Assembly: GCA_958009085.1 (NCBI GenBank)
Contig: OY253689.1
Coordinates: forward strand, 124,001 to 188,000
From: Protoeuglena noctilucae
Lineage: Eukaryota
Length of the DNA stretch: 64,000 nucleotides
Direction: 5' to 3'
The translations under genes were made by a program, and so were the position numbers. The notes below the pieces were generated by a model. That model was not told the DNA's origin, did not search any database, and worked only from the letters and a program-made list of their open reading frames with translations. Each line of letters starts with the position of its first letter. Position 1 is the first letter of the stretch. This document shows positions 4,101 to 63,800 of the stretch, piece by piece.

Positions 4101-4259
4101 GCCCCGCTTGCGCCCCCGCGCGATGGCCTCGCGCATCAGGGACTCCAGCTGCGCGTCGCTCCTCCGCAGAATCTCCTCCGGCGGGGGCGGCGGGGCGTCC
4201 GAAGACGCGTCCGACGCGGACGAGCTCGCGCCCGAGCCGCTGTCGCTGCGGGCGCTCAT
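1137..4259 (-). CDS. Reb1/TTF1/DMTF1-like multi-Myb protein with K/G/E-rich linker and C-terminal LYAR-like winged-helix segment
   Basis: Spliced Myb repeats: KLGSWTQDEE, KPWTTKDDRAL...GPKWVAIGAELGRPPDSCKYRHR, KGAWDADEDARLQQAV...VNWVVVAQAVGGRGVSQCRLRWY, HEDRSLLRAL...VEWDKLV...CRRRWGLM...FAQMVDYL. Last exon ends LVRVEGQRVYLVQP-TAA (1137-1139). Confidence 0.8.
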
Positions 4260-4716
4260 GGCGGGGAGCTGGCTTCGCGTCCAGATGGCGATGGCATGCG
4301 CGCTTGCCGGGTTTGTGGGTGCTGACGTGCGCGTGCCAGGCGGGGGTGTACCTGCAAGTGGCATTTTTGGCTTTCCTGTCGTCGGGGCGGTGCTGCACTT
4401 GGTACCGCTGTGACGATTGCCTGGAGCCGCGGAGTGCTCGTTAGCTGCGTTAGAACGTCCGTCCGCCCAAGCGGCGGCTGCATCTGGGGAGCCCGTTTAC
4501 GGGCGCGTGGTGCGCGGACGAGCTTTGTTGCTTGCCTCATCGGCGTTGGAAGGGAGCGAAGGGTGCACATGCAGAGCCCAGGCTGCCCCGGGGGCGGCGG
4601 GTGGAGGCGGGGTGAGCGTGGTGGTGGGCGGGGCAGTCGCGAACAATTTCCGACGCGGATAGTTTGCTAGAGGGCAGCGTAGACAGCAAACTTAATGTTG
4701 CTTCTGCTGCATGCAG

Positions 4717-7700: not shown

Positions 7701-7904
7701 GTTTACGATGCCATGGCCACGTTTGCCAAGGTGTACAACCTTCAAGGCAGACCCGATATAGAAATGCCCAGGTTGGATGAGAGAAACATCGCCCGGACTT
7801 TTGTTCGTCGGGGACGTGGTCGGCGGGTTTCTCAGGGGTTACGTCGATTGATCCTGGTGGTCGCCATTACCGGCGCAATTTCTGTGCTAAAATTAATTCG
7901 GTAA
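4717..7904 (+). pseudogene. Low-GC multi-exon gene with three tandem copies of an alpha-helical HEPN-like domain, apparently disrupted
   Basis: Exons 4717-4957, 5131-5459, 5552-5892, 6051-6412, 6496-7137, 7218-7576, 7689-~7900. The three repeats share intron positions and phases (LD|xLA phase 1; FxDxVxP/E|M/VY phase 0). In-frame TGA at 5799-5801 and frameshifts at ~5685-5750 and ~6502-6512. Start codon not located. Confidence 0.65.
6616..6938 (+). repeat. GCAGGG/GCAGTG hexamer array encoding an Ala/Gly/Val linker
   Basis: Imperfect 6-bp tandem repeat, in frame between domain copies 2 and 3. Confidence 0.9.
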
Positions 7905-8118
7905 GTATTATGATATACCAGCGGATGGAGCATGCAGATGTCCTGCAGCCAACTTTGTTTGGTAACAATGCGCTCCCAGGGGACGTGTCCTATGCACTTG
8001 GCCGACCTTTTGTTCATACCATGCCCACATGGTTTGCCCGCGGCACTGTCAGCCCTGCGCGTCTACGACCTCAGTATCATCCGCTGCAAGTACTGGTGTC
8101 TGCTAGCACGGGCTTACC

Positions 8119-8206
8119 TCACACAACGCCCCCATTATTAGACATCCCTTTACATCATAGTATCACGGGCTCACATCACACAACGCCCTTATTATTAAAC
8201 ATCCTC
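8119..8206. repeat. Short diverged direct duplication
   Basis: tcacacaacgcccccattattagacatccc and tcacacaacgcccttattattaaacatcct, about 57 bp apart. Confidence 0.7.
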
Positions 8207-8742: not shown

Positions 8743-10282
8743 CAAAGTCTCCTCCCCTCTCTTACCTCCTCGTCGGGCTGCCGTTGGCGTCCCCGCGGCC
8801 CGGGGAGTCCCGGCGCGGCGACAGGTCCCGGCGCGGCGAGTCGCGGCGCGGAGAGTAGTCCCGGCGGGGCGGGGAGCGGTCGCGCGGCGGCGAGTCACGG
8901 CGAGGGGAGTCCCGGCGCGGGGAGTAGTCCCGGCGGGGCGAGCGGTCGCGCGAGTAGCTCCTGCGAGCGAGGCAGAGGGGTGGGAGGGGCGGGTGAGCCG
9001 ACACGCGCATTCTGCCGCTCCTAGTGACCTCGGCCGGGATCCATCGCTCCGTCATTAAATGTCGACCTTCCGCCGCCCGGCCTGGGAGAAACGGGCCGGG
9101 CGCTGACCTGCGGTAGTAGCCGTAGCTGTCATAGGGGGAGCGTGACCGCAAGCGGTACCTCCGGTATCCTCGGCCGTCGCGCCTCGAGTCGTAGCCGCGG
9201 TCGCGGTAGCCGCCACGGTCGTAGCCGCGATCGTAGCCGCGATCGTAGCCGCGGTCACGGTAGCCGCCCCGGTCGTAGCCCCCGCCGCCCCCGTAGCCGC
9301 CGCCGCGGCCGGACATCATCCTGCGAGACTCAAGTGTGCATCGGGTTTACGATAGCCGAGCAGGCCGCCCGCACACACCGCACACATCCCCAACGCACCT
9401 GCGCATCTCCTCCGGCCTCTTGCGCTGCTCCTTCGCGAAGCACACCTCGAGCGTGCGGCCCATCATCTCATACCCGTTCATCGCTGCGAGCAAGGAGCCG
9501 CGGATCGGTCAGCGCCGCGCCGTACGCCCCACGGGTGGCAGCCTGCGCACGCGTGCATCCCCACGCACCGCGCTCCGCGTCCTCCGCGTCCCGGGGGTCG
9601 ATGAACTCCACGAACGAGAAGCCACGGGGGCGCCTGCGGCCAGAGCGGGCGGCGGCGGTGGCGCCCGGGACCGGGTGGCCTCGGCCAACCTCCACGAACT
9701 GTCTGCCCCCTCCCCGCGCCTCCCCCCGCCCCCTCACCGGCCGCTCGGGGCACCTAGAGACAGCAACAAGGTCTTGTTCTCGACCGCAGCAAAACGAACG
9801 CGTCAGGGCTTGCGCTCGGACCGGGGCGTGCTTGCGGCTCGAAAGGCCTGGGAGGGTCGGCCTCCGCCACAACCATGCACCCATCGGCTTGGGACGGCCT
9901 CGCTCCCCTAGCTGGTCTCGACAACACGACTGGCCACGTACCCGGACACCCGGAGCGCCCCTGGCGGCCACGGCGTCCTCCGGCTGGCACCCGATCGCTC
10001 GGCTCTCACCCCGTGTTGTGGTCCTTCGGAATGTAGACGTCCCGGATGTCTCCGTACTTCGAGAAGAGCTCGTGCAGGTCTTGCTGGCTGCGAGGGAGGG
10101 AGCCGGACTTTCGCTCGTCACCCGATGACCCGATGGCCTCCCCGTCGCGGCCGATCCCCGTCTCGTTTTCCGACGACGCACCTGGCCCGGTCGGGGACGT
10201 TCCTCACGAGCAGGGACACCCTCTTCCTGCCCCCCTCCCGGTCGCTGCGCTCATCCCGCTCGTACCGGTCCCGGTCGCTCAT
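8600..10282 (-). CDS. SC35-like (SCL subfamily) SR splicing factor, RRM + RS domain
   Basis: MSDRDRYER...VSLLVRNVPD, YGDIRDVYIPKD, PRGFSFVEFIDPRDAEDA, MNGYEMMGRTLEVCFAKEQRKRPEEMR; GYDR and SPRRD repeats; ends ERNYA-TGA. Confidence 0.9.
8706..8740. repeat. (CA)n microsatellite in the last intron of the SR gene
   Basis: About 17 perfect AC units. Confidence 0.95.
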
Positions 10283-11768: not shown

Positions 11769-12345
11769 TGAGGCCTAGCAGTTGGGGGAGCGGTGCAGTG
11801 GGGGGCAGAGAGTAGCATTTCAGACTAATTGCGGGGTTCACAGAAGGGCCTGACAGGGGGAGTTGCCGCCTGGGGCCCAGGTGGGAGCGGGGATGTCAGC
11901 TCCGCCCCCGCGGCCGTGCGCACGTCTCACGTCTCATGAGGATCGAAGTTTCACTTGCCCTGCGTCGCGTGCCGATGACTGTTGTGTCTAGCAGAGGGTT
12001 TACAGCCGCCTCTCGATGGCGGGCGTTGAATTCATGCTTTCGGAATTCAAATGTTCTGGCGCTAGACGGGCGACCTGGCGCGGGAGAGGGCTGTCGGACT
12101 CCGCTGCCCTCGACAGTCGCGGCATTCGCGTGAAATACGTCGTGGTAGCCCATCGCGCGACCTCCGCCGCCCGCCCGCGACTTCTCCCGCGCTCCCTGCC
12201 CCCTGCCCAGGGCGACCCGCTCGCGGCCGAGGGGCGCTCGGCATCCCGCGGTCGCGCCGTGGCCGGCTGCGGAGAGGTCCTCCCGCCGTAACACCGGGCC
12301 GGCACCGGCGGCGACGCGTCCCCCGGGCCTCCCGGGACGAGCGCC

Positions 12346-15144
12346 ATGGGCCTCGGGGATGAGGCCGCGGAGAACCTGGGGATGCAGGACCCAAACCTGG
12401 AGCGGTCGTTCCGGGGCCACAGGGGAGCAGTGCACTCGGTGTGCTTCAATCCGAGCATGAAGCAGCTCATTTCGGGTGCGTCGGGGCCTGCTCCGCGCCG
12501 CCCCCTCGCGCCCGCCCGCGCGCCCGCCGGGGACCCCGCGGCCGGTCCCGCGGCGCGCCGAGCGTCGCGGTTGCTTAACAAGCGCCCGTAACCGTTGCTG
12601 TCCTGCCCCAAACGCCTCCCCTGCGCCGGCGTTCGCAGGTGGCAAGGACAACATGGTCATGGTGTGGAATTTCAAACCCCAGATGCGGGCCTTCCGGTTC
12701 GCGGGCCACCGCGGCGCCGTCTACTCCGTCGCCTTCTCCCCGTCGCACGCGCTGCTCGCGTCCGGCTCCCAGGACTGCACCGTGCGCATTTGGCAGCCCA
12801 CGGTGGAGGGACGCTCCACCATCATCAAGGCAAGTCGCATGGTCATAGCTGGGGTTGTTTCTGCTGTGGAGCGCCCGGCTCATGGGCTTCCGCGTGCCTG
12901 GTAGCGATCCGGCGGGGCGGCGGCACCGCCAGGCTTGGCACGTCTCCGCACGTCACCCACCACCGCGCTCTTCTCTCCTCACCCCGCTCTCCCCGCTCAC
13001 CCTCTCACCCCCACCACCCCCCCCACCTCCCCCAGGCCCACAACGGCTCCGTGCGCTCCGTGTCCTTCGCCGCGGACGGCCGCTTCCTCCTCACCGCCTC
13101 GGACGACAAGACGGTCAAGATGTGGTCGCTGCCCAACCAGCGGTTCAAGGGGTCCTTCTCGGGGCACCTCAACTGGGTCCGGTCGGCGGAGTTCGCGCCG
13201 GATGGGAGGCTCGCGGTGTCGTGCGGGGATGACAAGGTGAGAGGGGGAGGGTGTTGAGTGTTGTTAAGAGGTGGGGTAGGCGTGTCCTGCAGGGACGACA
13301 AGGTGAGTGCGGTTGGGTGGAGAGGGGGTGTTAAGGTATGCCCCACAGAGGTGTCGGATGCGCTAAGGGGTGACACCAGTCACTCACCGTCACAACATCC
13401 ACACCAGCACCCCACCACACCCCTCACCCCTTTCCCCCCACCCAGACCGTCCGCTTATGGGACGTGGAGACGCGCAAGTGCGTCCACGTGTTCGAGGACA
13501 CCAACCACGCCGCCCTCGCCAGCGTGGCCTTCTCCCCCGACGGCACCTGCGTGGCTGCGGCCGGCATGGACCGGGACGTCAAGGTCTGGGACGTGAGGAC
13601 CAATTCGCTCATCCAGTACTACACGTCCCACTCACGCCCCGTCAACGAAGTGCGATTCCACCCCTCGGGGAACTTCCTGGTCTCGGCCAGCCAGGACGCG
13701 ACATTGAAGGTGGGTGACGGTGGGGTTTGGGTGGTGATGGTGAACTGTGTAGTGAATGTGTGGTGGTGATGGGGGGTAGTGTTGCAGTGTGTCTCGGCCA
13801 GCCAGGACGCCACGCTCAAGGTGGGAGGGTGATGAGTGTGACAGCGGTAGTGGTGATTTGTGTTTGGGACAGCGACAATGGTGGGGATTGGTGGTGTGTG
13901 TCGGCCAGCTTATTGGTACATTTCTCACCCCCAACTCAACTCAGGTCTGGGACCTGCGCGAGGGCCAGCTCATGTACACGCTGCACGCGCACGAGGGGTG
14001 CGTGAACGGCGTCGGGTTCTCCCCTGCCGGCGACTACTTCGCCTCCGCGGGCGTGGACGAGCAGGTCATGGTGTGGAAGACCAACTTCGATCGCAACTTG
14101 ACGAATTACGTCATGGCGGACGTGGAGAGGCACGGGGCGGGGGGGGAGCACAGGGAGGGGAGGGTGAGGGGGGTGGGGGCGGTGGGAATGGTAGTGGTGG
14201 GGAGGGTGAGGGGGGTTGATGAGGAGGGCGTTCCTTGCTGCCACATCCTCACGGACACATTGATACCACTACCATTACCACAATCACCCCCACCCTCACC
14301 ACTCACCCCACCACTCACCCCACCCACCCCCAACCCCCCTCAGGTGAAGGACGGCCCCCCGCCCGGCTTGGCCGCCGACGGCCGCCGCCGCGCCACCCCC
14401 CACGCCCCCTCCCTTTTCGACGCATCCGCTAAGAACGGTGATAACGCGGGCATGGGTGGGCACGAGGAGGGCGGCAGGGTGTTCGTGCAGGCGGGGATGC
14501 CGATGAATCTGGAGAACGTGCCGGAGGGGCTGGCGGTCACGCTGCAGCACATGTCGCAGCAGGTGAGATGGGGATGAGAGAGAGGGAGATGCGTGTTGAG
14601 TGGGTGTGGGTGTGACGCTGCAGCGCGTTCACCTTTCCCACACCAACCCCACCCACACCACCCCCCCTTCACCCCCAGGTGGACGTGCTCACGCAGAGCA
14701 TGGCCTGTTGAACCCTCGTCCATGCTTTCATTTTTTAATATCAACCCCACTCTCTTCACCCCTTGTCACCCCCAGGTGGACGTCCTCACACAGAGCATGG
14801 CGTGGATGGAGGCGCGGACGCAGCTCAACGAGGAGCACATCCGGGGACTGGAGGTGAAGCTCAACGCCATACTGGAGGCGCTGGGGGTGAAGACGGGGCA
14901 GGGGCAGGCCGTGGGGCAGATGGGTGGTGGGCAGATGGGGCAGGGGCAGGGTGGGCAGATGATGGGGCAGGGTGGTGGGCAGATGATGGGGCAAGGGCAG
15001 ATGGGGGTGATGCAGGGTGGTGGGCTGATGGGACAGGTGGTGGGGCAGGGTGGGCGTGGTGGTGTGGCGGCGGAGGGGGGTGCGTCGCTGCAGCTGGGAG
15101 TGGGCGGGGCGGGTGGGGTGGCGGGGGTGGCACCGGCGAAGTGA
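12346..15144 (+). CDS. POC1: Centriolar WD40 protein POC1
   Basis: DPNLERSFRGHRGAVHSVCFNPSMKQLISG; WD repeats (HLNWVRSA, VWDLREGQLMYTLHAH, QVMVWKTNFD); C-terminal Poc1 coiled coil TLQHMSQQVDVLTQSMAWMEARTQLNEE; GQM-rich tail. Confidence 0.95.
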
Positions 15145-15427
15145 GATGTGCTGCCGGGCTGGGCGCGATGGATGGGCATGTTGACGTTTCATGCATTTCG
15201 TCACCTACGCAACCTCGTTGAATCACTAACATCGCTGCCGTCGGCTTTCAGTAGCCGTGCCGTGCGTGCGTGCCAGGCACCGCCGCAAACAGCTGCTTCT
15301 GTCACTGACTCAGGCCTCCCGTGCTCTCTTCACACTTCGAAACTCAAAAGTCCTGCCCGTCTGGGTCAACACAGATTCAAAATGTACAACCACACCCAAA
15401 CCCCCACCCCCGCACACAAAGTCACCC

Positions 15428-18400
15428 TCACGCCGAGCTCGCCGCCTGCGCTTTGACCTTCCCCCCCTCCCCCGCTGTCGCCCTCCTCTCCACGGTCATC
15501 TTCAGCCCGTTGCGCGTGTGGATGGTGGCCCCCGTGGTCAGCCCCACCTCTTCAGGCGGAGTGGCCAAGGCGAAGCGGAAGCGACGCACCAGCATGGCCA
15601 GGCACACCGTGGCCTCGAACATGGCGAACTGCGAGGGGTGAATGGGGACTTGTATTGATTGAGATGTGCGCTCAAAAATGGCTAGGCACACGGTGGCCTC
15701 GGACATCGCAAACTGCGATGGGTTAGTGGGGGAGTGCGTTGGTTAAGATGTACATGCAAGCATGGCCAGGCACACGGTCGCCTCGAACATGCCTCTACCC
15801 ATGCACGTCGCATGACCTGTACAAACCGCTACCCCAGCACATGCCCTCGTATGTCGTTAACTACCCAGCACCGTGTCTCACCTGGTCCCCCACGCATTTG
15901 CGCATCCCCCCCCCGAACGGCAGGTAGGCGAAGTCCGCCATGGTCTCATTGGGGTAGAGGGCGCCGGGGGAGGCGTCGGGGTTGAAGCCGGACCACTGGG
16001 GGGGAACGGGGGATGTGGGAGTGAGGGAAGGGAAGGCGGAGAGGGGGAGTGGTGCAAGGGGTGGCGAGGGTGGGGCGGAGTGGGAGGGAAAGGCGTAGAG
16101 CAGCGAATGGGCCGCGACACACTCTATCCATCCTCCTCCTCTTCCCCCCTCTCACGATGTCTTCCTACCCCCCACACACCCCACGCAACCCCTCCCCTTG
16201 CACCACCCCAACACCCCCACCTTGTCCTTCCACTCCGGCCGCGGCTCACGGCGCTCGGTGAACCTCTCGGGCCGGAAGGTCGCGGGTTCGTCCCAGAGCA
16301 GCGGCGACCGGTGGAGATTCCACGTGGAGATGAAGACGTCGGCCCCCTTGTTCAATGGGACAGAGGGGAGGTCCGTCAGTCCTCCGGGCAGCTCCACGTC
16401 TTTCAGTGTGCGGCGGATGAGGAAGGGGGGCTGGGGGTACATGCGGAGGGACTGCGGGGGTGGAGGTGGGGTGTGAGGCATCCTCCGCCAGGCACGCCCC
16501 TCACTTAACCTGCTCCCACCCCCATCCTTCCCCTCTCCGCAACCCCCGTCACCTCAGCCAGGCACGCCCCTCACCATCCCCACCCTCACCCAACCCCTAC
16601 CTCCACCCCTCCCCCTCACCTCTGCCAGGCACGCCCGTGTGTAAGGCAGCGCCTTGATGTCGTCCAGCGTCGGCACGCGGTCCCCCAGCACCTCGTCGAT
16701 CTCCCGTTCGAGTCTGGCCAGCGCCTGGGGCGCCTGGGCCAGGCTGAAGAGCGTCCACGTGAGCACGGCAGCGGTCGTCTCGTGCCCGGCGATGAGCATC
16801 GTCATCAAATCGTCCCGCAACTGTTTATTCGAAATGTCCTCTCCCCGTGAATCGACCAGGAATCGCAGGAGTGAGGGGTCCTTGATTTTGCTGTAGTCGC
16901 GTGCTTGCAGGGCCTCCATGTCGTCCTCCTGTCGGGTCTCCTTGGCCTTGTCAATCAACTCGTCCAATGCCTGGAGTGGTATGAGGGCATGGGAGGGGTA
17001 ACGGTGGCATTGAGGGTAGCCATGAGGGTGGGGGTAGTGAGGGTGGCAGTGGGGGTGGCAGTGGGGGTGGCTGTGAGGGAGGCAGTGGCAGTGAGGGTGA
17101 GGTGCAAGCACGGACCCCACACAGTCGCCACCCACTCCCACTTTCTAAAGTGTCACCTTAGAAATCACCCCCATCTGTTCCTTGAACTTCCTCTGCCTCG
17201 GCACCACCAGGTCATTCCCGGGGATGTTCCAGTAGGGAATGTAGAAGGTCGAACGGTGCTCGGCCTCGCGGAGCACACCGTACACGGCCTGGGTGGGGTG
17301 ACAGGTGGTGGAGAGGTGGTGATGGGCAGGGCGGTAATGTTGAGTAGGGAGGTCTGGTGATGTGAGAAGCGATGTGAGAGTGGCAGGGGTGTAGAGGTGG
17401 TGACGGAGACAAAGTCGCAGCTGCAGTGAGTCCCATTGATAGATACCATGCCATTTTATAGTAAGTGATGGTACTATCTTATATCATAGCACCACAACTC
17501 CCTCGCCTTGATGACGGGCGACTCGGACGTGACGGACCCAAAGTCGTAGTTGAAGACCCCCAGTCCGATGATGTCCAGGGCCACGTTCAAAAACTCCGTC
17601 TCCATGTCAAGCACAGGCTTGCCGTCCTATGTTGGGTGGGAGGGGAGAACAGGGTGGGGGTGGAGGTGGTTGTGAGGATTAATTGCCCCCTGGGGGTGCA
17701 GAATGATGCAGCACTGCACAGCTCTAACCAAGGCGGCACATCAACCGGCACCGCAACGGCAAGACACAACAGCAGAAGCAGCACCGTATGAGCCATGCCT
17801 CACTCCCTTGCCCTCTCTAACCCCTTCTCATAACACTGTCTCAAACCCCATGCCACCCTCACCTTGCGCCCCAGCAGCCCCCCGACCTGCTTCCCGTCGA
17901 TGGCGTCCCCCAGCTTGGCCACGGTGCGCTCCGTGCACTGCCCGAACATCTGAATCATCGCATTCAGGTACGCCTTGTGGAAACCGGGGACGATGGCACG
18001 GCGGCGCACCTGCAGGATGCGGTGGATGGGATGGGATGGGTGGGTGACGCAGTGCACACACACCGGCAGCGAGGGGATCTCAACTCAAGTGGACCCCGAG
18101 GAACGGCAGATGGAGCAGCTCATACAAGAGGCAACTCGTATAATACTCGTAATCCCATTCCCATCATCTTCGACAGCCCTTCCTTCTCTCGCCTGCCACG
18201 TCTCGAGGTCGGCCGGGATGAGCCCCTTCCCCATGATGGCCTCGAGGATCTCGGCCAGCACGCCCTTGTCGAAGCTATAGGCCTCCTCGCGAAGAATGAA
18301 GCGAGCGATGACGGGGTCCGACACGATCAGGAACGCCTGCGGGGAGAAGGAGTTTGGTAGTGATGGGCACTGCATCTACTGCAGTGGCGCTCCCCACGCT

Positions 18401-18931
18401 TTCAACGAAAAACCGTCCTCCTCCCGCACATCTATACCTTGGGTCCGAAGGCCAGCTTGTAGACTCCGCCACTCTCGAGGTACCAGTCGTACAGCGGCGC
18501 GAAGAGAGGCCGCTCCCCATCCAGCACGGACACGTCCGCATCCACCGCAGGCACGTTCTCGCCGCCGAGGTTCGGCTGGAAGTAACCGGCCGACAGCTGC
18601 GTCACTATCCTCGAGAATCCGTCACGTAAGTCACCCTTGCCCTGCACGGCCGCGTAGACGGCCATCAGCGCCCCTGGGAGCGCGGAGACGGGCGGGCGTG
18701 GACCGCAGCGCCGCGCGGTGGCGATATTCTGCGCTCGCTGACGCGGCAACATGTTGCAAACAAGTAAGTTGTTACTATAGACGACGCACCCGGCGCGAAG
18801 AAGGCCGCGACGCCCGGGAGCCAGTCCGGCACGGCGCCCACGCTGGGCGGCCCACGGCGGACCGTGCCGGGGGCCGGGCGGCCATACCGCGAGGGCAGGG
18901 GACGTGCCAACGTTCCGGAGAAGCGCGTCAT
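15428..18931 (-). CDS. CYP97B: Cytochrome P450 CYP97B (plastid carotenoid-hydroxylase family)
   Basis: [69 protein letters not shown], heme motif [12 protein letters not shown]; transit-like N-terminus [15 protein letters not shown]. An extra upstream exon is possible. Confidence 0.93.
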
Positions 18932-19591
18932 CGAGGCCTGGGATGCGCGGCGAGCCCCCGCGCGGCACACATGGCCCCTGCGTGCCAAGGGACGCCTTAT
19001 CTGACTTCCCGGGAGCTCGAGTCCGCCGCGATGGGCGGCTTGTGTTCAGGAACGCGGTAATCGGGTGCGATATAGCCAATCGCTGGGCCGCGCCGTCCGC
19101 AGACGGGCCCTCGCGCGCACCTGCCCACCGCCGGGGACGCATGCGCGAGGAAGGTCCTCGGAGCCGCCGTGGCCGCGACGAAGTCACACATCTCCGGTCG
19201 GGACGAGGATGCCACGCTCCTAGCCGCCGCCGGCAAGGTCGCCTGCTCCGCGAGAAGCCAATGGGCTGCGACCGGGCGAGGCAGTCGGGTGCGCGCACAG
19301 GACGGAAGGCCGATGAACCGACAGTCGCAGCCGATGGTCTTGTTCCTGTCGGATTGTCACAGTGCAGAAAGGACCAGATGAAATCGTGGACGGCATTGTC
19401 GGCGTTTTCCTGCGGGGAGGGCACCGTGGTCGGTCCACCCTCCCCGCTCCTCGACACAGCATGGGCACGAGCGGCTTCTGCCCCTCTATCTGCACGTTCC
19501 ATAGAGCGGTAGCAAAGACCCGTGCTGCTTTCCTGGGCCCAGCTCTGGCCCTGGGCGTGTTGAAAACGTGCCGGGCCCTCATCGACTGCCG

Positions 19592-21924
19592 ATGTCCGCT
19601 CCCCGACAGGCCAAGAACGCTTTCGCGATCCTCGGGAAGAAGCGCCAGGCATCAGAGCCACGCTCCTCGCAGAAGCGGCCCAGCGCGGGGCCCAGCGCGG
19701 GGCCGCAGAGCCGTCTGGCCGCCTGCCCTATCTGCGGGGCCAGCGTCCATCATCTCTTGTTGGAGGACCACGTCGACTCTTGCCTAGGGTCCGCCGAGGG
19801 CCGGGGCGGCCCGAAGCGCATCAAGCGAGGGTCCGTCGAGTCGGTCGAGACAGCTCCCACCCAGGTCGTCCAGTCGGGCGGGGCCAGCGTCAGCGCCGGT
19901 CTCCGTGTGGACGCGGAGGAGCACGAGGGCACGCCCTGCGGCGGGGCGAGCACGTCCGGGGGCGCCTTCCAGGTCCTTTTGTCGAGCGAGCGCGCGCGAT
20001 GCACGCGGCAGTACTTCTACCTGGAGCGCACCGGGCAGGGGTGCTGGACGTGGCACTGGGGCAAGATGTCGCCCAACGCAGACCGGCCGCCCGACCTGCC
20101 CCCGCCCGCATGGTCCTCAGGCGAGGGGCTGCAGGGCTAGCTGTGCGTCATGCCTGCATGGTCATCGCTCCGTCTACTCTTGCCACTTCGTTTGCATCGA
20201 CCATCGCTCGCAGTAATGAGCCTGCGGAGTGTCTCCATGGTGCCCGTGCACGTGCCTGGGTCTGTGCTGCCCAAGGGTGCCAAGCACTCCTTGGTGTTGC
20301 TCACGAACATCCCGCCCCAGGCCGGTGGGGCTTGGGATGAGGAGACCCTGGGCGCTGCACACCCGCGAGGGGAGCCTAGGTACACGGGCTGGCCAGGCCT
20401 GCTCAAGTCCGCCCTGCAGAAGAATGTGCGCCTCTGCCGCGCCGATGCCGCAGGTGTGATGTGATGCGCGAGCCCTGGGTTGGGCACAGGGATGTGCGGA
20501 GCTGATACGCTTTCTAATCATGCCATGTGGCTGTACGCCCACTGCCCAACCCTCTGCTCTTCTCTCTTGCAGCGCGCGTGGCGCTCCATCTGATGGCCAT
20601 GGCACCCGAGGAGGCGCTGCGGCGGATCCCAGTCATTTGCGTCGAGGATGCCAGTGAGTACATGACGGACCGGAGCCATCCATATCATGCAATCATGACG
20701 CCTCACTACCGCCACTCGCAGCTGTCTTGCTAGCACGGTCCCCGCCCGTTGCCATTCACGCAGTCCTGCACCCGGCCATGGCACTCCTTGTGTGGCTAGC
20801 GGCGGCATGTGGCAAGGGACACCGTCTGGGATTCGCACACGCCGCCACGGTGGCGGAGATTGTGCACCAGGTACGACCCACAGCCATAGCCAGGTGTACG
20901 ACACCATGGACGCCTAGCGAGCAATTTCCTTCCATCTCCCGACACCTCCTATGCCCTCCATGCCCGCCCCCAGGTGGCCAGCGTGCCGTTGCGAGACGTG
21001 CTCGGCGCGTCTGAGGACGACGGAGCGCCAATGGATGACGAGGATCCAACTGACAGCAATGTCGCTGCAGGGAGCCAGCGGCGTGGGGAGCCAGGGCCAA
21101 CGACGGCGTCGACTACGATGGCAGAGGTCATGGCAAGCCACGAGGATCCCATGGCGAGGGCGGCCGTGGCTTCGGTGCTGCTCCGTGCGGTGCTCGGGGG
21201 CATGCGGGGGGACGTGGAGTTGCTGCATCAGTGTGCTGCTGCGTGGCATGCGAGGCTGCAGGGCCGGGGGGACCAGGCACGGCCCCCGGTCGCTCAGCCG
21301 CCTCCACCCGGGTGCATCTGCGTGGCGAGTGAGCTGGTGGATGGGGGCCCAGGGTCGGACGAGCTTGCCGGTGACAAGGCAGCGTGCGAAGTGTGGATGG
21401 GATTCCTAGCCAAGCTGCACGCGCAACAGGCGGGGCGCATGCGGGACCCGCGGTCGGGCGAGTGGGTGCAGTTGGACGTGGCGCGGCTCGGGCCCGTGCA
21501 GCCCGAGGATATCCCGGTCGCGGCCGTCGACTTCCACTGCTCAGACATCGTGGAGAGCCTGCTGGCCGACGAGGGCCTGGCGGGCGACGCGGTGCGCGAG
21601 GCGGCGCGGGCGGCGGTGGAGGCGGCCCCGGAGAGGTTGAAGAGCCCGGAGGAGGCCATACGTCGCGCCATGTGGCGGTTCAGCAGCAGCACCAACGCGA
21701 GGATGCCGATGTGGGAGCCGCCGTCCCCGGCCGGCGACGACGTCGCGTTGCAGCAGGCGAGCAGCTGCGCTTGGAGGTCCCGCTGCGCTGGACAGGCATG
21801 CCGCGGCTGCAGCACATCACGCTCGTGACGCCCGCAGGCCCTCGAGGTGCTGTGGAGCGTGGTGGGACCGCATGCGACCACCTGGGCGGAGTCGCTGATT
21901 GCCTCCAAGTTCGAGTCCTCCTAG
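19592..21924 (+). CDS. UBZ4/Rad18-type zinc-finger protein with MgsA/WRNIP1 C-terminal-like helical domain; no AAA+ domain seen
   Basis: CPICGASVHHLLLEDHVDSCL; LLKSALQKNVR...ALRRIPVICVEDA; AAVDFHCSD; last exon ends KFESS-TAG. Confidence 0.7.
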
Positions 21925-22321
21925 CCGCACCCCGTTTCGAGCATTGGATTGACTGTCCCGCGGGGGGCAGGGGCAAACCCGGCTGGCATGACGGACACGC
22001 CGCGTTGTGCACTGAAGCAGCAATGCGGCCGCGTCAGGCTCAGTCATTGGAATCGTGTCTACGTCCTTGCACTCCTGCGCCGTGAATTCTGCATCGGGCT
22101 TCTCGGCCCCCGAGAACCGTCAGCGAGCTCAGCGACAAGGGCCCTCTCGCCGTCAGCTAGGAATGTTGCAAATGTTACGCCCCTGACGGCGTGACAGCTT
22201 GCGCCTCGGGCCCGAGCGGCTCAGCGCACTCGACCCCGACTCTGCGCCTGCCCCGTGCGAGGGGCGCCGTGGGGAGAGAGGACCCGCGTGAGCTGACGCT
22301 GTGCCATAGAACGGGCCCGAC

Positions 22322-25300: not shown

Positions 25301-27937
25301 ATGCGGACTCGCTGGATCTCAGCCGGACGAGGGACGCGCTCAAGCAGCTCGAGAACGACAGGCTGCTGGGGAGAGTGGCCAAGAGCAGGAAGCTGGCCAA
25401 CAAGGCGAGTGAAGGGGGGAGGGGTGGGGTGGATTTGACAACGTGCATGGGGTTGTCTGGGCCAGAAATGGTAGTGGTGTTGGCGGCATTGGTGTCACGA
25501 TGCCGTCCTGACTTGGCTGTTGTGGCTGTGATGGTTGCTATGGCTGTAACGCACTCATGATCCCACATCGCCCTCCCTAGGACCATCATGACATGAACCC
25601 CCCCCCTCTCTCCCTCACCCCCCAGGTCGAGTCGATGCGTCACCTGGCCCCCGCGATCCACGCCATGGACGAGCCATCCGCGTTGGAAGGCGGCATGCGC
25701 CGCCGCAACAGCTACACGGGGGGCGAGATGCGCAAGGTCGTGTCGCGGCACATCCACCGCGACAAGGTCCGCAGGCCGTCCCAGAGCTTCCTGGAGAGCT
25801 CCCAGGCCAGCTCGGCGGCCCAGTCGGGGATCCTGGCCAAGCCGCCCCCAAGGGCCGCGGCCGAGGCGGGGCAGGCGGCGCCGGTGCAGGAGCAGCGGGC
25901 GCCCTGGGACACCGCGCCGCAGTTCAAGAGCACGCAGGCGAGTCTGCAGAGAGGATGGGAGTGGGTGGGTATGTGCATGTGTGGGTGTGTTTACGTCGCA
26001 GTTCAAGAGCTGCATGGGTGCTTGTGTTGCAGTTCAAGCGAGCATGCAGTCGACACCCCCCAGACAGCAAGCGACACCCTTCACAACTCTCACCCCACCC
26101 TCCCATCCCTCCCCCCCAGGTCCCCCTGCAGCACAAGTCCTTCATCGAGTCCATGTCCTTCGGCAAGACGGCGTCCGAGGGAATCGTGGACGTCTCCAAT
26201 CTCCCTACCCCCGGCAACAAGGTCCCCTTGCACCGGGGCAACTCGCGACCGGGCATCCCCAGCAGCGCCGCCACCCCGGCGGGCGACAGTCACGGCAACT
26301 CGCGCGCGGTATCGAGGCGGTCGTCCGTCAACAGCCGGCAGGCGGGGACGGTGCTCAAGCAGGTCTCGACCTACCTGGCCCGGCCGTCGCAAAAGTACAT
26401 CTCGCGTGCCTCCATGGCAGCAGCCAACCACCTCGTGTCCCAGGCGTCGGGGAGCATGGGCAACTTGGTCGGAGCCACGCGCGCCCGCCCGCTCCCCGCC
26501 ATCGCCGGCGCGGCCAGCTTCCGCGCTTTGGGGCGGCCGCCGGTGCCGGCCCCCACCCCTCACGACGTGGGCCCCGGCGACCCCCGGCTGCGCGCGGTGG
26601 CCCGCATCGACAGCCGCATCGCCGCTGGGAGGATCTACGAGCGCGGGGATGACGCGGCGGTGTACGTGGACTTGGATGCCACGGGCACGCCGCGGGGGAA
26701 GGGGCCCTCGAGGACCAGCCACGGCGACGACGTGGGGTCGAACCGGGTGAGGGGAGGGAGGAGGGGGTGGCATGCGGTGCTATGAGTTGTGCGGGACTGA
26801 CCGGCTCTGTTTGCCAGCTGCAAACCCCACCACCCCTGCACCAGCACCCCCACCACCCCCATTACCCCCACCTTTCCCTTACCCTCCCCCCAGATGGCGA
26901 TCCTCTCGGCCCTGTCCGACGGCGGCGACGTGTCTCCCCTGGAAAGCATCGAGAAGCTCACCGTCACAGCCTTACAAGACCGCATACGCGAGGCCAAGGC
27001 CGAGTGCGCGCGGTACATCCCCATGCCACTCGTGGAGGCGGCGGTGGCGTACATCCGGGCCATCAACCCAGGCGAGAGTTACCGGGGAGCTGGGGAGGGG
27101 TGGGAGGCAGGGATGGAGTGCATTGGGGGCGAGGGGGATGGGGGCGAGCGTGCACAGTTGCGACCGGTCCCTGTGCCCCCCTGCAGCGTGGCCACGTCAT
27201 AACATATGACTCAATCTCTCTTTCAACCTCTCCCCAGGCGGCACCGTCACCTCCTCCAGCACCTCCACCTCATCCCCTCTGTCGCAACACTCACTCCATC
27301 TCTCTCTCTCCCACCCCCAGGCGGCACCGTCACCTCCTCCACCACCTCCAGCGCCCCCGCGGGCGGCTACAGCGACGACACGTTCCGGCGCATGGTGGGG
27401 GAGGACAACGTGGACAAGATATCCAACCTGGTGTACAAGGTTAGTTAGCAGTACTGAGTGCGTGTGTAAATGGTGGGGTGGATGAGATGTTGCACCGGTG
27501 TACTTAGTACACTACTAACCAGGCCCCCTCACTCGCACCCCCATGCACGGGCCGCCACCCCAGCTACCCCGGCTACCGAACATCCCCACTCACCCCGCCC
27601 TCCCCCCCAGATCTGCGTCTACCAAGAGAGCCTCGCCGAGGATCGAACCCGCGACCCCCCGCCGGCCCCGAGCGCCTCCTCCTCCGCCCGGTCCCTCACC
27701 GCCGGCATGCACAGCTCCGGCCGCTCCGCCGCCCAGTCCTTCACGTCGGGCCACCCCAGCGGGCCCAGCAAGGTGTCAAGCATCGCGAGCGAGGTCATTC
27801 CAGAGGATGAGGAGACCCCCACCTCGCGGGCCGCCCAGCACGCGGACCGGTTCCGAAGGGCGGTGACCACGGGCACGGCTGCGGCCGTGGCTGGCAGGGA
27901 CGCGGGGGCGGAGGACGGGTCGCGGGGGGACGGGTGA
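22322..27937 (+). CDS. NIMA-related (NEK) kinase with N-terminal MGC acylation motif and long extensions
   Basis: IGAGAYG, VVK, EVRVLSQLSHPNIVQ|YIEAF, HRDMKPSN, DFG, TVVGTPYYLSPEICEDRPY; first exon MGCKNSK splices in frame. Confidence 0.9.
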
Positions 27938-32057: not shown

Positions 32058-35000
32058 ATGATGCGGAAGCTGTGGCAGCGGGAGCTCGGCCTCATCGGGT
32101 CTCCCTCCGCCGAGGTGGGGAGTGTTGCTTGGCGTCGAGCCGCCGGGTTGGGAGCGCGCGCGCGAGCCGTCCTGCGATGCAACGCCCGCGCCTTGACTTC
32201 CCGGAGTCGACGATATAGTGTCGCGTCGTGCTCGCATCGCCCCAGCGCCCCCCGCGCGTCGCCCGCGCTGGGCCGGGGCATGCGCCGGCCCCTGCCACGT
32301 GCTGCCCCGCCCTGCGCAGCGTCGTGACGCCCGCGCCCCATCCCGCGCCGCCCTCCCCGCCCGCTCAGGTATACTTCCGCAGACGCGCGGCCGAGTCCCT
32401 GCGCGTGGACGGGCTCTGGGAGCTCGGGGACGCCCCGCAGGCCCTGCTGCAGTGCTTCTCGCCCTGTGGTCAGCACCTGGTCGGTGAGCCCCGCGCGCCC
32501 GTCGCTCCTCGCCCCGCTCAAACCTCCCCGCACCTCAAGTACATGTAAATGCTTATGGCGCGCCCCTCCGCGCTGCGCACAGGCGTCGCGATGGACGCAC
32601 AGGAGCTCCTGTGCTGGCGGGTCCATGGCAACACCTACGCCCTGCGCCCCGAGGACCCCGCGCCGGGCGATGCCGGCCCCGCAGCTGCGGAACTACTCTT
32701 TCATACATCCGCCTCCGCCTCTCCGCCGACCGCTCCGCCGCTCCACCGGCCCCTGACGGAGTCTCCTCGCCCTTCCAAGCGCCCCCGCACGCTCCTTCCG
32801 CCCCCGCCGTCGCTTCAGCACCTCGAGCCCAGCGCCTCCTCGGCCCCCGTGGCATTCTCGCGCTTCTTCCCTCCGCTCTGGGCCCTCCGCCTGCCCCACC
32901 CTGCGGAGTCGTACCTCCCAGACCTATGCCACTTCACGCCGGACGGCCGCTTCCTTCTCGTTGCGTCCGCCCCCGCCCCCGGCCCGCCCCCGTACCCGCT
33001 CTCTGCCCCACCGCCGACCCCGACGACCCTCCACGTCATGCGCATGCGTGACGGCGCCCGCACCCACCATCTCGAGGTCTTGGACGTCGCCCACCCGCTC
33101 AGCGGGAGAGGGGTCCAGGTGCGGCGCTGCGACTTGTATGTTGTGAGCGAGAAGCCTGCATGCGCCGTAGTATTGGCGCCACTCATTGGCTCGCCACGTC
33201 TGAGCTCATACCCTCTTTCCTTATCTCTTCTCCTCACCTGCTTCCTGTTTCCCGACACTACTGCAGGTCTTCGGTGACTTGGTGGCGGTCCTGACTGAGA
33301 GTCCCCACGACGCTACCGCTCACGTCTACCGCCTGTCTGCATGTGGCATGCTCGACGAGCTCTATCGCGTGGGCCGCGAGTGCCGCACGGATGACGAGGC
33401 GCAGCTGCAGGGACTGGCTGAGGACGAAGCCGCTGTTCAGCAGAGGATGCACGATTACATTGTGGGCAGGGGCGGGGGTGGGGGTGGGGGCGGGGGTGGG
33501 TCAACAACAGGGGGGGACCAAGGGGGGGTGTCTAACAACGCAGGAGGGGAGGCGGTGACTTCAGTGGGTGTGGCCAACTCTGGCAGTGGCGCTGGTGGTG
33601 GAGCTGGCGTGGCGCTGGGCGCTGGGGCTGACTCAGCGATCGCAAGGGCTGCGTCAGAGAGAGCGCAGGGGCAGGCGATGGGGCAGGGCGGTGCTGGGAT
33701 GGGTGCGACTGGCAGGGCGAGTGTGGGTGACAGGCCGCATGTAACTGGCAGGCCGAGTGTGGGTGACCGGTCCACTGCTGCAGACTCCCATACCACCCCC
33801 CTTCGTGGCTCTGCCTCTGCCTTACCAGGCCCCCACCCGCTGCTCCCCGGGCAGTCGGCGCTGATGGGGCCACACGGGATGGGACCATCGATGATATCAG
33901 AACCTATTGGTAGTAACAGTCTGATACCGGGAGTGGAGGGTGTGGAAGCGCGGGCGGCGTTGCCGGGAGAGCCGTCGTTTCGGCAGGAGGTGGTGCGGAA
34001 CGGGGTGGTGCGGGGCGCGGAGGGAAACCTGGCGGGGCTGGCCCAGAAACTGCTCACGTGGCTGGTGCAGTGGCATGCGGGGCAGGACTGGTGAGGGGTG
34101 GGTGGGAGTAGAGTAGAGTGGTTGTGGAGTGGTGCAGTGGCATGCGGGGCAGGACTGGTGAGGAATGGGTTGGTGGGTGGGAGTGGAGTGCTTGTTGAGT
34201 GGTGCAGTGGCACCTCATGTATTCACGTTTGTTACCACAAAGCTTCGTCACGCCCTGCCGCTGCACTGCTGTCCAATCTTATTACCACTCTGCCCATCAT
34301 TGACTTCCCTACAACCCTCGCCCCTCCCCCACCCCCGCAGCCTCCGCTGGGTCTTCCGCTGCTTCCCCGCCCTCTCCCGCCCCCGCATCCGCGCCGGCCA
34401 CTTCCTCTCCCGCACCCACTTGCTTCTCCTCATCGCATTCCCGGACCTGCCGCCCGCGCCCTCCCTCCCGAGACTGGCGCCCGCCGCGTCAGAGTCGTGC
34501 CAGTGCGCCGTGTCGGTCTATGCCCTGCCCGACGCCCGCGTCGAGATGGCGTCGTTCCTGCCGACGAAAGAACTCATGGCCAAGGTGAGGGGACGAAGGG
34601 GGGGTTGCACTGTGGGCGCAATGCCACGATGCTTGGGGTGCATGTGGGAAGTGATGGAGCAAGGCGGGGCGCCTGGGATTGGTGTGGGTCGCTGTGGTGT
34701 ATGGCCATGTCATGTCCTTGACTAGAACCTCACACCCCGTTCAGTCATTGCCACCCAAACTGCCACAGCTGTCACCACCACCCACCCCACACATGCTCAC
34801 CCCTCCCCACACGCCCCGTCCCCCGCCGCAGCTGCTGGAGTTCCCAGAGGTCTGGGGTTCGAGTCCCTCCGTGGCGTCCATTTGGGAGGCCGCCGCCCAG
34901 TCAGGCCCCGCCCTGCCCCTCTCCACCCCTCCCTGCGCCCGCACCCACCGCCTCTCCACCCCACCCCACCCACGCACCACACCATCGCCCAACAACAACA

Positions 35001-60888: not shown

Positions 60889-63800
60889 TTACGAGGCCAT
60901 GACGTCCGGGAGTGCGGCGATCCAGTGCAGGGCGTGGTCGGCAACCAGCCGCGAGTTGAAGATGAACGCCACGCCGCCGTCTGCCATCGCGTGCGCCCGC
61001 ACGGCCGGGCTGAGGGCGCCCATGCACTGGCGCAGTAGGGTTTCTGGCACCCCGGTGCCCTGCACGTGCGGAGGGGAACAGGCGCCCCGTCTGAGGGGAC
61101 AGAGAAGGGCCCACAGGTGAGCGTGGCGACCATCGATAGCATTATAGATAGAACCATGGATAGAACCATAAGAGAGTCATGGCGGGCAAGGACACTGCCT
61201 GTGTTTGTGACGGTAATCAAAGCTTAGCATGACAAAACTGCTCCAAACTTTTAAACGTTCGGCTAAGCTGATTGCCACCTCACCGTGGGACGCCTGGATG
61301 AGTTTGGGAAGCACGCGGCTCTCCACAATGGCCCATGCCGCGGGGTCCAGTCTCTCCTGCGCCTTCTTGTACGCCCAGTCCAGCAACCCATGGGGCCCGC
61401 TCGGGAGGTCGTCAAACGAACCGCGCCACCCGCATCTGCGACGAGATATACCACGGTGATGAGAGAAATGTCATGGGCACCTGACAGGCGTTTGTTAGGA
61501 CGAGGCTGCCCATCTCACAAGCCCCTCTACCAGTTAGCTATCCCTCCTTCGCCCTTACACTACCACTGACGCCTTCCCCACTCACCGTAGTAACGTCCCC
61601 AGAAACGCGTAGCTGCCCCCTGTGGCCTTGGCCATGCGCTGCGCCTCCTGGTCCCTCCGCTCCGCTGCGCCCGCGTCCGACAGCCACGATCGGGACAGCG
61701 GCGCCGAGCTCGTCACGAGCATGTCGCACGCCGCAGCGATGTCCCGGGCGTCTCTGCTCGCTTCGTGGGCGATGAAGGTGGCGTTCGAGGACTGCGGGAG
61801 AAGGGGGTGGCAACGGCGCCACTCCGCTGTGTGTGACGGGCAGCATTGCATTACGTCACAAAACGCTATGAGAGGACGCGTCAGCAGGGTACATCCGAGG
61901 GCTGCCTGAGGCGTCCGCCATCACTGGCCCTCAATCCCTCATCTCACCTTGAGCGCTGCAGAGACCCCTTCAGTCGGCCTGGCGGTTACCACCAGCGTGA
62001 GCCACGCGGGGCCTTGAGAGAGCCCCGATATAAGCTCCTCGGCCACGGCGGGGTGCAGGGCATCAAAGCCATCCAGGATCACCACAGCGGGGCGGTCCGA
62101 TCGCGAAACGACCCCGGTCAGCCCACTGTCGCGCCTGCGAGCATTGGACGTGCCAACAGCGCTCTTGACGAGGTTCTATGGTACAATTACTACATGTTGT
62201 CGTGTCATGAAGCAAGAATAGCACCGTGATTGGTCCACCGAGCCCATGCAAGGCAACCAGTGACGAGCTGTCTGCGACGCAGCCATTGGTTGGGTGCACA
62301 AACAAAACGTCTCTCTCACCGGTCCGCTGGAAGCGCCCCTGACTCGGGCCCCGCCTCAGCCGCCGCTTCTTGGAAGGAATCTGCCGCCCACCGCGCCTCC
62401 ATGGCGTGCAGCGGACCCAGCACCAGCTTCTGCATCGTCTTGCGCATCAGCGCCACGTCTGGCAAGTCCTCCAGGGAGGCCCGGCGCGCCAGGGTCGACC
62501 TGCACGACATGGCGAGATGAGGGTGATTTGGTCAGCCTGAGCGTTTTAGAGCCAGAGCGTCACATGAGTCGGCGGCGCCCTCCTTGAACCCACTCGCCCC
62601 CACTCACCCCAACAGCGTCTGCCATCTCTCACCCTCATCCCCCGTCACCCACTCACCCCGGCAGTGTCTGCCATCGCTCACCCTCATCCTAGTGACCCAC
62701 TCACCCCAGCGGCGCTTCCTTGGCCCACTTGCGCCGAATGGACCCCATGGACGCCGGACCCGACGACCCGTTCCTCTTCCCATTCATCACCACCGCATCC
62801 ATCGACCGCCGCGCGGAGCTCTTGGACCGTGATTCCTTTTCCCGGGCCACAGTGGATGGCTCTGGCCCCGCAACCCCCGTCAGCCTTCGCCCGTCCGTCC
62901 CCACCCCCCGCGTCTCGTCGATGCTGTCCTGATTCCAGCTGCGGGAGCCACGGTGGGGGCCCGGGGCGGCGTCCTTCTTGTCCCCGCGGGACGAAGCCAG
63001 GCCCTGCGGAGGGTGCGAACATCAGGTATAGGACGGGTGGACAGGTGCTCTTGGTTAGTGGTGACATCCCTTGCGGGAGCATGGTGGGACGGCGGCAGGG
63101 CGACCTTGCAGACGTTATGATATCAACGTCTGGGTCTGTGGCATTGGGACTTCGTGACGAGAGAGCAGGTTGCATCGCAGTGCGCCTCACCAGTGCGCGT
63201 GACACGGACGACAGGCCCCGGATGATGCCCCGCATGAAGCTGCTGCCCTTGCTGGCGGTCGTCTGCGTCAGGCTCAGCTCCCGCGCGCCCTGGAGCACCT
63301 CGGCGCAGACGTCGCGGTCGCGACACGCCAGTTGCAGCGCCAGACGCTCCACGACCGTGCGCCAGTCGGCCCCGCGCCCGGTCGGCGACGACACGGACGC
63401 CAGAATGCGGCCCCCGAAGGCCCCCCGCTGCTCCAAGGAGCTCGCAAGCACGGACTTCCCCGTGCCGGTCCCCGCCAGGTACGCCACCACGCGCGCCGCG
63501 TGGCCCGGCGCGACCTTGGGCCCCACCGCGCTCTCTAGCTCCCGCTCGAGCGCAGCCATGGTGCCGTCCAGCCTCTGCATGGCCACCTGGCACCGCTCCC
63601 CGAAGCCGTCCCCGCACAGCACCCCGTGCAGCTGCCTTAGCTGCGCCATGTGCTTGGACCGTAAGCTGTGGGCGGCCTGCAAGTCACGGGCCCACGTTGT
63701 TTGGTGAACAAAGGCATTCACCAAACATGAAGCCAGGCACGATGAGCTGTGAACAAGCAGCGACGTGTTGACCGCACAGGCAGTGAAAGCCACTCGTCGT

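Follow-up and report, generated by a model that had tools for sequence, protein, structure and literature searches.

Probable short tandem duplications across exon-intron junctions in a 64-kb window of the marine green alga Protoeuglena noctilucae

We analyzed a stretch of 64,000 nucleotides of Protoeuglena noctilucae DNA (GenBank assembly GCA_958009085.1, contig OY253689.1, positions 124,001 to 188,000 of the forward strand), here called the window, in which exon edges and their splice sites recur inside the adjacent introns. These intronic copies, which we call echoes, are probably short tandem duplications across exon-intron junctions. The window is eukaryotic, with a G+C content of about 65% and splice donors of the GTGAG type. 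Its plus strand carries a WD40-repeat gene (12346..15145), whose frame and splice sites were read from the sequence, with exons at 12346-12475, 12639-12829, 13036-13236, 13446-13709, 13945-14163, 14344-14562 and 14776-15145. The spliced translation is open and 85% identical over 210 codons to that of a relative, L002; the least secure boundary of the model is the donor at 14163. The original prediction had named this gene POC1. It does encode a WD40 propeller protein, but the name was not confirmed by protein and PDB searches: long multi-WD40 proteins crowded out any naming in the search with exon 4, and the PDB search gave generic WD40 matches only. We call the gene POC1-like. Its neighbor on the minus strand is a CYP97B P450 gene, the best named matches being chlorophyte CYP97B proteins with 76-78% identity.

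Twenty-five introns were defined in the window, 10 of them read from the POC1-like and P450 genes, 13 by RNA joints and 2 by eye. Each exon edge with its splice signal was then aligned to its own intron, while the edges of the other 24 introns served as controls. Scores of this anchored search are given below next to the null maximum.

Three echoes had been predicted in the POC1-like gene, and all were found with exactly the letters and positions described, far above chance. In the donor-side array (a) (13216..13356, plus strand), the real edge at 13216-13236 returns at 13282-13302 with a period of 66, and both copies are followed by gtgag (18.5 vs. 9.5). They differ at 3 of 21 nucleotides, two of these being third codon positions and one a first position (GGG to AGG, Gly to Arg). 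The donor-side array (b) (13680..13909, plus strand) has its real edge at 13680-13709 and its echo at 13791-13820, both followed by gtggg, with a period of 111 (19.0 vs. 10.0). All 4 differences in 30 nucleotides are silent, TTG/CTC being a Leu-Leu pair. Each of these arrays also has a partial third copy that had gone unmentioned: GTGTCG at 13351 in (a), and GTGTCGGCCAGC at 13898-13909 in (b), with a period of 107. The array (c) (14662..14802, plus strand, period 97) lies on the acceptor side, so that its echo (14662-14705) is upstream and the working acceptor belongs to the downstream copy (14759-14802; 29.0 vs. 10.5). Its unit consists of a pyrimidine tract with AG (17 nucleotides) and 27 nucleotides of exon; the real exon start (14776-14802) and its echo (14679-14705) differ three times, always at third positions. 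The intron parts of the (c) units can be aligned (z score 4.8; 48 matches, 18 mismatches, 8 gap columns), those of (a) and (b) cannot (z scores 0.6 and 0.9). A fourth intron of the gene, 14164-14343, adds a donor-side repeat at 14157..14216 (plus strand), in which GGGGAGG and, across the junction, GTGAGGGGGGT occur again 42 nucleotides downstream (15.5 vs. 10.0). This repeat is G-rich and of low complexity, and was excluded from the codon tally for that reason.

The P450 gene contains two arrays on the minus strand. The one in its last intron (15629-15881) is on the acceptor side (15590..15796, period 84), with the real exon start at 15628, an echo E2 at 15712 and a truncated echo E1 from 15790; Tandem Repeats Finder (TRF) reports 2.3 copies with 78% matches and no indels (22.5 vs. 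8.0). The donor-side array of intron 16452-16619 (16483..16636) repeats the real edge GGGCGTGCCTGGCAGAG, followed by gtgagg, at 67 and 137 nucleotides into the intron, i.e. with periods of 67 and 70 (20.0 vs. 15.0). At one third-position site, its three copies read GCA, GCT and GCG.

Further arrays were found in other genes. Gene G3 has two on the plus strand, both in GC-AG introns. In intron 25938-26119 (array 25918..26047; 14.5 vs. 9.5), the exon-end piece CGCAGTTCAAGAGC is repeated exactly 79 nucleotides downstream; a second echo some 30 nucleotides further on, with a 2-nucleotide insertion and a second-position mismatch, was kept outside the codon tally. The acceptor-side array of intron 27072-27320 (27232..27350; 27.5 vs. 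11.0) has its echo at 27232-27267 and the real copy at 27315-27350 (period 83), with a single difference, at a second codon position (ACC/AGC). At intron 34091-34340 (donor side, 34063..34212, plus strand; 30.0 vs. 9.5), 34 nucleotides, 28 of exon plus gtgagg, recur exactly at +67, and 13 nucleotides at +137 (TRF: period 67, 2.2 copies). Finally, at the start of intron 62500-62704 (donor side, 62603..62705, minus strand; 13.0 vs. 10.0), GGG and, across the junction, GTGAGTGGG occur three times with a period of 49. Only 3-5 nucleotides of this unit are exon-derived, its copies align with 41 matches, 7 mismatches and 2 gap columns, and the 3' end of the intron was placed only by eye. Alignable intron parts are thus a feature of four arrays: (c), those at 34 kb and 62 kb, and the acceptor-side array of the P450 gene.

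In total, 11 of the 50 junctions (8 donors, 3 acceptors) gave echoes that beat every control, in 10 of the 25 introns and at least 5 genes. The intron set is enriched, since some introns were included for their echoes; among the RNA-defined introns alone, echoes are present in 2 of 13. A position-blind scan of the window for local direct repeats returned 27 segments, as opposed to 0 and 1 in two local shuffles, and small tandem repeats are abundant in the window's introns generally. The earlier claim that junction-spanning duplications recur is therefore sustained, but they are not special to the POC1-like gene. Between 12 and 42 nucleotides of exon edge are copied and the similarity ends abruptly. 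The array periods range from 42 to 111 nucleotides, 5 of 12 being multiples of three. Two units and a partial third, i.e. the form R-U-R-U-R that is expected from duplication between short direct repeats, make up (a), (b), both P450 arrays and the 34-kb array. (A scan for pairs of donor motifs was dropped because the GGGGCA microsatellite at 6610-6937 swamped it.)

Comparable echoes were also seen in two unrelated organisms, when the same scan was applied to 80 metagenome loci fetched with exon 4 of the POC1-like gene. In L060 (388-642; also L059 and L061), a WD40 homologue has two echoes of ...SASDDKTVK, followed by gt, in an intron, and in L074 (758-909) another has one echo of ...GGADN, followed by gt. 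These plankton contigs have GC contents of 0.48 (L060) and 0.58 (L074). In L074, echo and exon are distinguished by ATC/ATT and AGT/TCC, the latter a three-letter switch from Ser to Ser.

The echoes are present in contigs other than those of the assembly. Positions 12000-17500 are complete in four runs of one labelled organism (X1-X4), 94-97% of them are found in two marine metagenome runs of another study, and part occurs in marine metatranscriptomes. Contigs of the metagenome X5 cover 13024-14320, 14316-15050, 15115-16597 and 17043-27622, showing neither deviating letters nor gaps; the only variant listed is a one-base insertion at 14310 in one contig. Six of nine arrays are identical in the metagenome contigs of the other study; the 34-kb and 62-kb arrays lie outside the compared stretch, and it takes two overlapping contigs to bridge the donor-side array of the P450 gene. 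Logan contigs are built from 31-letter words. Since all stretches shared identically by echo and real edge in (a) to (c) are shorter than 31 nucleotides, the joins should stand in the reads themselves. An open reading frame (ORF) that runs from the P450 echo E2 through 42 nucleotides of intron into the real exon is likewise unchanged on 8 + 14 public contigs. An assembly artefact, which the original prediction had named as a refutation, is thus opposed by contigs of another study and sample that carry the echoes letter for letter, with the restriction that X5 may have contributed to the assembly.

The repeated splice sites seem to stay outside the main transcripts. In all three metatranscriptome runs, the RNA joints 25934>26117 and 27066>27316 skip the echoes of G3. 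The 15 of 65 RNA joints that are listed include none of the POC1-like gene, for which one RNA contig (X11, record 7) has the real version of (b) over 13444-13707 with no other letters. The RNA evidence against use of the echo sites consists of contig joints for the two G3 introns and of a single contig for the POC1-like gene. Use of the echo donor in (a) would lead into a TGA at 13255-13257, that in (b) into an in-frame stop codon, and the echo acceptor in (c) would give ...VDVLTQSMAC and then a stop. The reading frame would be kept only by a 33-nucleotide piece of (b) and by the upstream P450 acceptor, which would add 28 codons. Given this gene structure, translation of the echoes is not plausible, and the use of echoes as micro-exons, which had been offered as one explanation, is unlikely. 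Mutually exclusive or tandemly duplicated exons were rejected as well: only an edge of 12-42 nucleotides is copied, and use of the copy leads to stop codons.

The original prediction had stressed that nearly all differences between echo and exon are silent. To quantify this, 12 echo-real or echo-echo comparisons with 278 sites were tallied by codon position. Differences were found at 2 of 90 first, 2 of 95 second and 19 of 93 third positions. The 19 third-position differences among 23 have a P of 1.7e-4, 1.3e-3 or 0.019 when the expected third-position share is 0.44, 0.5 or 0.6; at 0.6, the POC1-like arrays alone give 0.12 and the P450 arrays alone 0.03. The skew is thus real and beyond expectation. 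However, because the working copy can change only silently, a freely decaying echo, too, is expected to have about 46% of its differences on third positions, or as much as about 60% if mutation is biased. The statement that silent-only differences are not expected under neutral decay was therefore too strong, and much of the skew follows from the silent-only freedom of the working copy.

We consider it likely that the echoes are real short tandem duplications across exon-intron junctions, minisatellite-like in form and located in introns, whose pseudo splice sites are unused in the main transcripts. On the donor side, the first unit would hold the working splice junction, and on the acceptor side the last. 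The remaining units would be spare exon edges inside the intron, with pseudo splice sites that are mostly intact but lie outside the main transcripts. They may originate from a local duplication process that fills the introns of this alga with short tandem repeats, candidates being slippage during replication, unequal exchange, or a switch of template from one short direct repeat to another. That echoes are seen at exon edges could be due, as we propose, to the loss of all duplications except those in which one correct junction is preserved.

The closest known case is the 37-bp variable number tandem repeat in intron 7 (IVS7) of the human F7 gene, a head-to-tail array whose first element lies across the exon-intron boundary (Borensztajn et al. 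2006, PMC1557585). The F7 pseudo-donors are near-identical and functional but silent, the most upstream donor being chosen. In structure, the donor-side echoes are the same. Here, too, the units are head to tail (TRF periods of 84 with 2.3 copies and 67 with 2.2 copies; offsets of 66, 111/107, 97, 67/70 and 83), a terminal unit spans the boundary, and the splice site is repeated with it, at 11 of 50 junctions above controls. Unlike the single F7 locus, the echoes affect many of the junctions examined, include the acceptor side and reach only about 2.2 copies. Their units have also diverged, in a codon-like pattern, which sets them apart from the F7 units. To call the echoes an undescribed mode of intron evolution, as had been suggested, therefore goes too far with respect to structure, given the boundary-spanning minisatellite described for F7 (PMC1557585). 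Exon-edge echoes with silent-only differences were not described in the literature searched, although a paper elsewhere is possible.

Several observations weigh against the reading as tandem duplications that simply decay. It fits poorly with the 19 third-position differences among 23. Swaps between G and C account for 10 of the 19 third-position differences; in the intron parts of these repeat units, the corresponding number is 3 of 46 (Fisher P = 9e-5). Half the divergence of the intron parts predicts about 7.7 non-third changes in three arrays, whereas 1 was observed (P = 0.004). The sample is small, its 12 comparisons are partly non-independent, and the counts vary with the fuzzy ends of the blocks. 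Moreover, the duplication mechanism is read from the form of the arrays alone, the DNA support comes from contigs, and the case for non-use of the POC1-like echoes is made by stop codons and one RNA contig; minor use of pseudo-sites would be compatible with the contig data.

Among the explanations of the silent excess, a simple local duplication whose echo then decays freely is possible, although we hold it with less than even confidence. The excess would then be composed of the expected half, a bias of mutation towards G/C sites (the third positions here are all G or C), and chance in a small sample. At the upper end of the expected third-position share, 0.46-0.6, the window-wide P is only 0.019, as given above. 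The young arrays (27.2 kb, and the second echo at 25.9 kb) have only non-third changes and an indel, and the P450 echoes show changes from G/C to A/T (TTT, CTA, ATT, CTT, GCT). Wider block ends would add an estimated 4 or so third-position and 5 non-third differences and so weaken the skew; the L060 echoes, read by eye, likewise show about 4 third-position and 5 non-third differences. The failure to align the intron parts of (a) and (b) requires just about 35% divergence plus indels in low-complexity sequence. Plain duplication and decay are adequate for the P450 and the young arrays. For the POC1-like arrays, the fit is poorer. G/C swaps there make up 6 of 9 third-position differences, resembling the 29 of 39 between the window and its L002 orthologues, whereas the 4 of 10 in the P450 arrays fit the mixed expectation of plain decay. 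Against that expectation of 0.34, the swap share has a P of 0.07 overall and 0.047 for the POC1-like arrays alone. Comparison of the POC1-like echoes with their real edges gives 9 differences at 30 third positions, comparable to the 39 of 171 between window and L002, yet only 2 at 60 non-third positions, and non-third changes overall are too few relative to the intron parts. All 26 of their codons end in G or C. To judge from these patterns, the POC1-like echoes resemble coding sequence that stayed intact and was under coding constraint while it diverged. Polarization of the changes with L002 as outgroup was uninformative because silent sites are near saturation (39/171; G+C content at third codon positions 0.94 and 1.00).

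The capture of sequence from divergent alleles, already proposed in the original prediction, would fit the POC1-like pattern best, but we regard it as tentative. Such an array would consist of a unit of one haplotype joined to the matching unit of a long-diverged functional haplotype, by out-of-register crossover or template switching in repair, so that the differences would be silent-only from the start and the intron parts would differ as allelic introns do; only misalignments that duplicate the junction would survive, while deletions would not. The divergence is in line with this, as the third-position value (19/93) is near that of the intron parts (15/48 and 18/66), with just 4 of 185 non-third sites differing. 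In addition, all diverged arrays cluster within 13.2-16.6 kb, in two adjacent genes, and arrays elsewhere have no third-position differences. Capture would thus fit the third-position excess, the swap spectrum, the shortage of non-third changes and this clustering. However, no donor haplotype was seen in the contigs examined. One genotype dominates all contig data examined, and the dominant natural genotype equals the window over 10.5 kb. The 22 public contigs have a single version of the P450 ORF, including its 84 nucleotides of intron-derived sequence, so that present-day diversity is very low, and the depth table has no second haplotype at equal depth. A search of public contigs for variant P450 echo lineages by the read-through ORF returned only the window's own sequence. 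GCA, GCT and GCG at one P450 site would require three donors or later changes, and the P450 echoes carry decay-like changes that end in A or T. Capture would also require a mechanism for repeated out-of-register joins. Roughly speaking, as causes of the POC1-like excess we rate ordinary decay with chance or mutation bias as possible and capture of a diverged haplotype as only slightly less so, and leave a considerable remainder to other causes. It seems rather unlikely to us that the older echoes, (a) to (c) and perhaps those of the P450 gene, are exon edges of a second, long-diverged functional haplotype, joined out of register in one or a few events of repair or template switching between homologues. 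If they were, the echoes would be a fossil record of past hybridization or of a lost divergent haplotype, visible because misjoins that duplicate a junction are harmless and those that delete one are lethal.

Two related candidates were rejected. Concerted evolution by gene conversion would, by our reasoning, give no silent excess unless the product of effective population size and conversion rate were far above what the observed divergence allows, with or without selection against transfer from echo to exon. Metagenome contigs with 90-95% likeness (139 of the 281 aligned) were considered as a sister lineage; they accumulate at conserved genes and at the 12-nucleotide repeat at 17036-17093, while several bins contain none, so that they support neither a sister lineage nor a second haplotype.

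It is improbable that the echoes are scars of recent intron gain or sliding, i.e. target-site or repair duplications left at the birth of the intron. In favor of this, L002 lacks the window introns at 13237 (a), 14164 and 14563 (c), while the first two introns of the POC1-like gene, which it shares with the window, have no echo. Near (b), the window intron 13710-13944 follows ...ACATTGAAG and the L002 intron (2305-2432) lies 15 nucleotides upstream, after ...TCCCAG. Lehmann et al. (2010, PMC2891723) describe intron gain by tandem duplication of an exon segment with AG and GT, as well as intron sliding and near intron pairs. Their model shares with our data the local tandem duplication with splice signals at exon edges, the near intron pair formed by (b) and L002, and echo-bearing POC1-like introns that are missing from the nearest relative. 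In that model, however, the intron is the duplicated exon sequence between the copies, whereas here an existing junction is copied into the intron. No intron made of duplicated exon sequence was seen: the introns (163-253 nucleotides) are G-rich and then C-rich non-coding sequence with the echo inside. The echo thus copies the junction of a pre-existing intron, in contrast to a target-site duplication, which would flank the intron. Moreover, a relative with 80% identity (P0002, as seen from its read-through) shares the two P450 introns that bear echoes; a link of echoes with lineage-specific introns would for this reason not seem to be general.

Introner elements are found in Micromonas and other algae. 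The window resembles those genomes in that it belongs to a marine green alga with many lineage-specific introns and in that one intron has an 8-nucleotide direct repeat at both borders. Nevertheless, an all-against-all blastn of the 25 introns revealed no shared introner-like family, only nine low-complexity G- or C-rich matches of 16-56 nucleotides, and the echoes derive from the local exon and not from a mobile element. The direct repeat, CCCAGGCG, is at 27067-27074 and 27316-27323, at both borders of the GC-AG intron 27072-27320, which leaves 9 possible positions for the RNA joint. It would count towards intron gain as a target-site-like duplication, but it may simply be the splice-site consensus, which it largely overlaps. 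GC-AG borders occur in 5 of the 25 introns (12830-13035, 25405-25625, 25938-26119, 27072-27320 and 30531-30640; four RNA-supported), an unusually high share.

We think it very improbable that selection maintains the echoes for a function, be it as alternative splice sites or micro-exons, as decoys for regulated unproductive splicing or as splicing enhancers. In favor of this, the majority of pseudo-sites are intact, with gtgagt in (a), gtggga in (b) and cacccccag in (c); the 33-nucleotide piece of (b) between cag and gtggga is open and in frame, and the upstream P450 acceptor would give an open insertion of 28 codons. In addition, P0002 carries a tandem array of its own in this P450 intron. 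On the other side stand the stop codons and the skipping of echoes by RNA contigs wherever joints are visible. The echo copies also differ among themselves, their periods have no preference for multiples of three, and an RNA-binding or decoy element would not predict a codon-like pattern. Tandem arrays carrying splice sites are reportedly a source of alternatively spliced human introns, in work attributed to Zhuo and colleagues in 2007; those arrays are said to create introns that are used, while the extra sites here appear unused. In P0002, the intron after ...CLAE (residues about 120-190) is open and includes four tandem copies of 10 residues (MCSPARLPSH-like), a unit that resembles the neighboring exon start in another frame.

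That assembly joined two haplotypes or strains in tandem is extremely unlikely and largely refuted, since nothing but the allele-like silent pattern favors it, an intron and not the upstream exon precedes each echo, six of the nine arrays recur in the contigs of the other study, with joins that should exist in reads for (a) to (c), and 22 public contigs carry the echo-bearing ORF, as described above.

To our knowledge, junction-spanning tandem repeats have so far been represented by one human case, that of F7. If the structure holds, they are common in at least one marine green alga and occur in unrelated plankton too. This bears on how short introns grow, on how cryptic splice sites arise and are tolerated, and on gene prediction, where an echo is a perfect-looking false splice site. 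Should codon-like divergence prove to be genome-wide, each echo would preserve, in datable form, an exon edge of another functional copy, and intron sequence would have a further, new way of being built, and past hybridization or haplotype loss would become directly testable in an ocean alga that is now nearly clonal.

Some further features of the introns and of the window were recorded. Across the 25 introns (12476-62704), the first third is 47% G and 19% C and the last third 18% G and 47% C. Hairpins between G-rich starts and C-rich ends gave no consistent signal in three introns (z scores of -0.57, +1.87 and -3.93 vs. shuffles). The P450 intron repeat at 17036-17093 has a 12-nucleotide unit (AGTGGGGGTGGC) in about 4.4 copies and draws many foreign contigs; metagenome depth there is 256 vs. 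about 14 elsewhere, with many loose ends. This jump is due to a shared low-complexity motif and is no copy-number signal. Positions 19.6-20.0 kb are syntenic with L002 3498-3720, in that a WD40 gene precedes one with a C2HC-type motif (window version: CPICGASVHHLLLEDHVDSC); unlike in L002, the P450 gene is inserted between the two in the window, on the opposite strand. Tandem duplications also exist away from splice junctions (1490-1571 on the minus strand, 9189-9308 and 8107-8204). Two of these are coding, a GHADGHKD-like repeat with a period of 51 and a Gly/Arg/Tyr/Asp-rich repeat with a period of 54, and the third is non-coding and AT-richer, with a period of 57. The GGGGCA hexamer array at 6610-6937 comprises about 55 copies, and the surrounding 4001-8000 has a G+C content of 0.54-0.57 vs. 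about 0.66 elsewhere.

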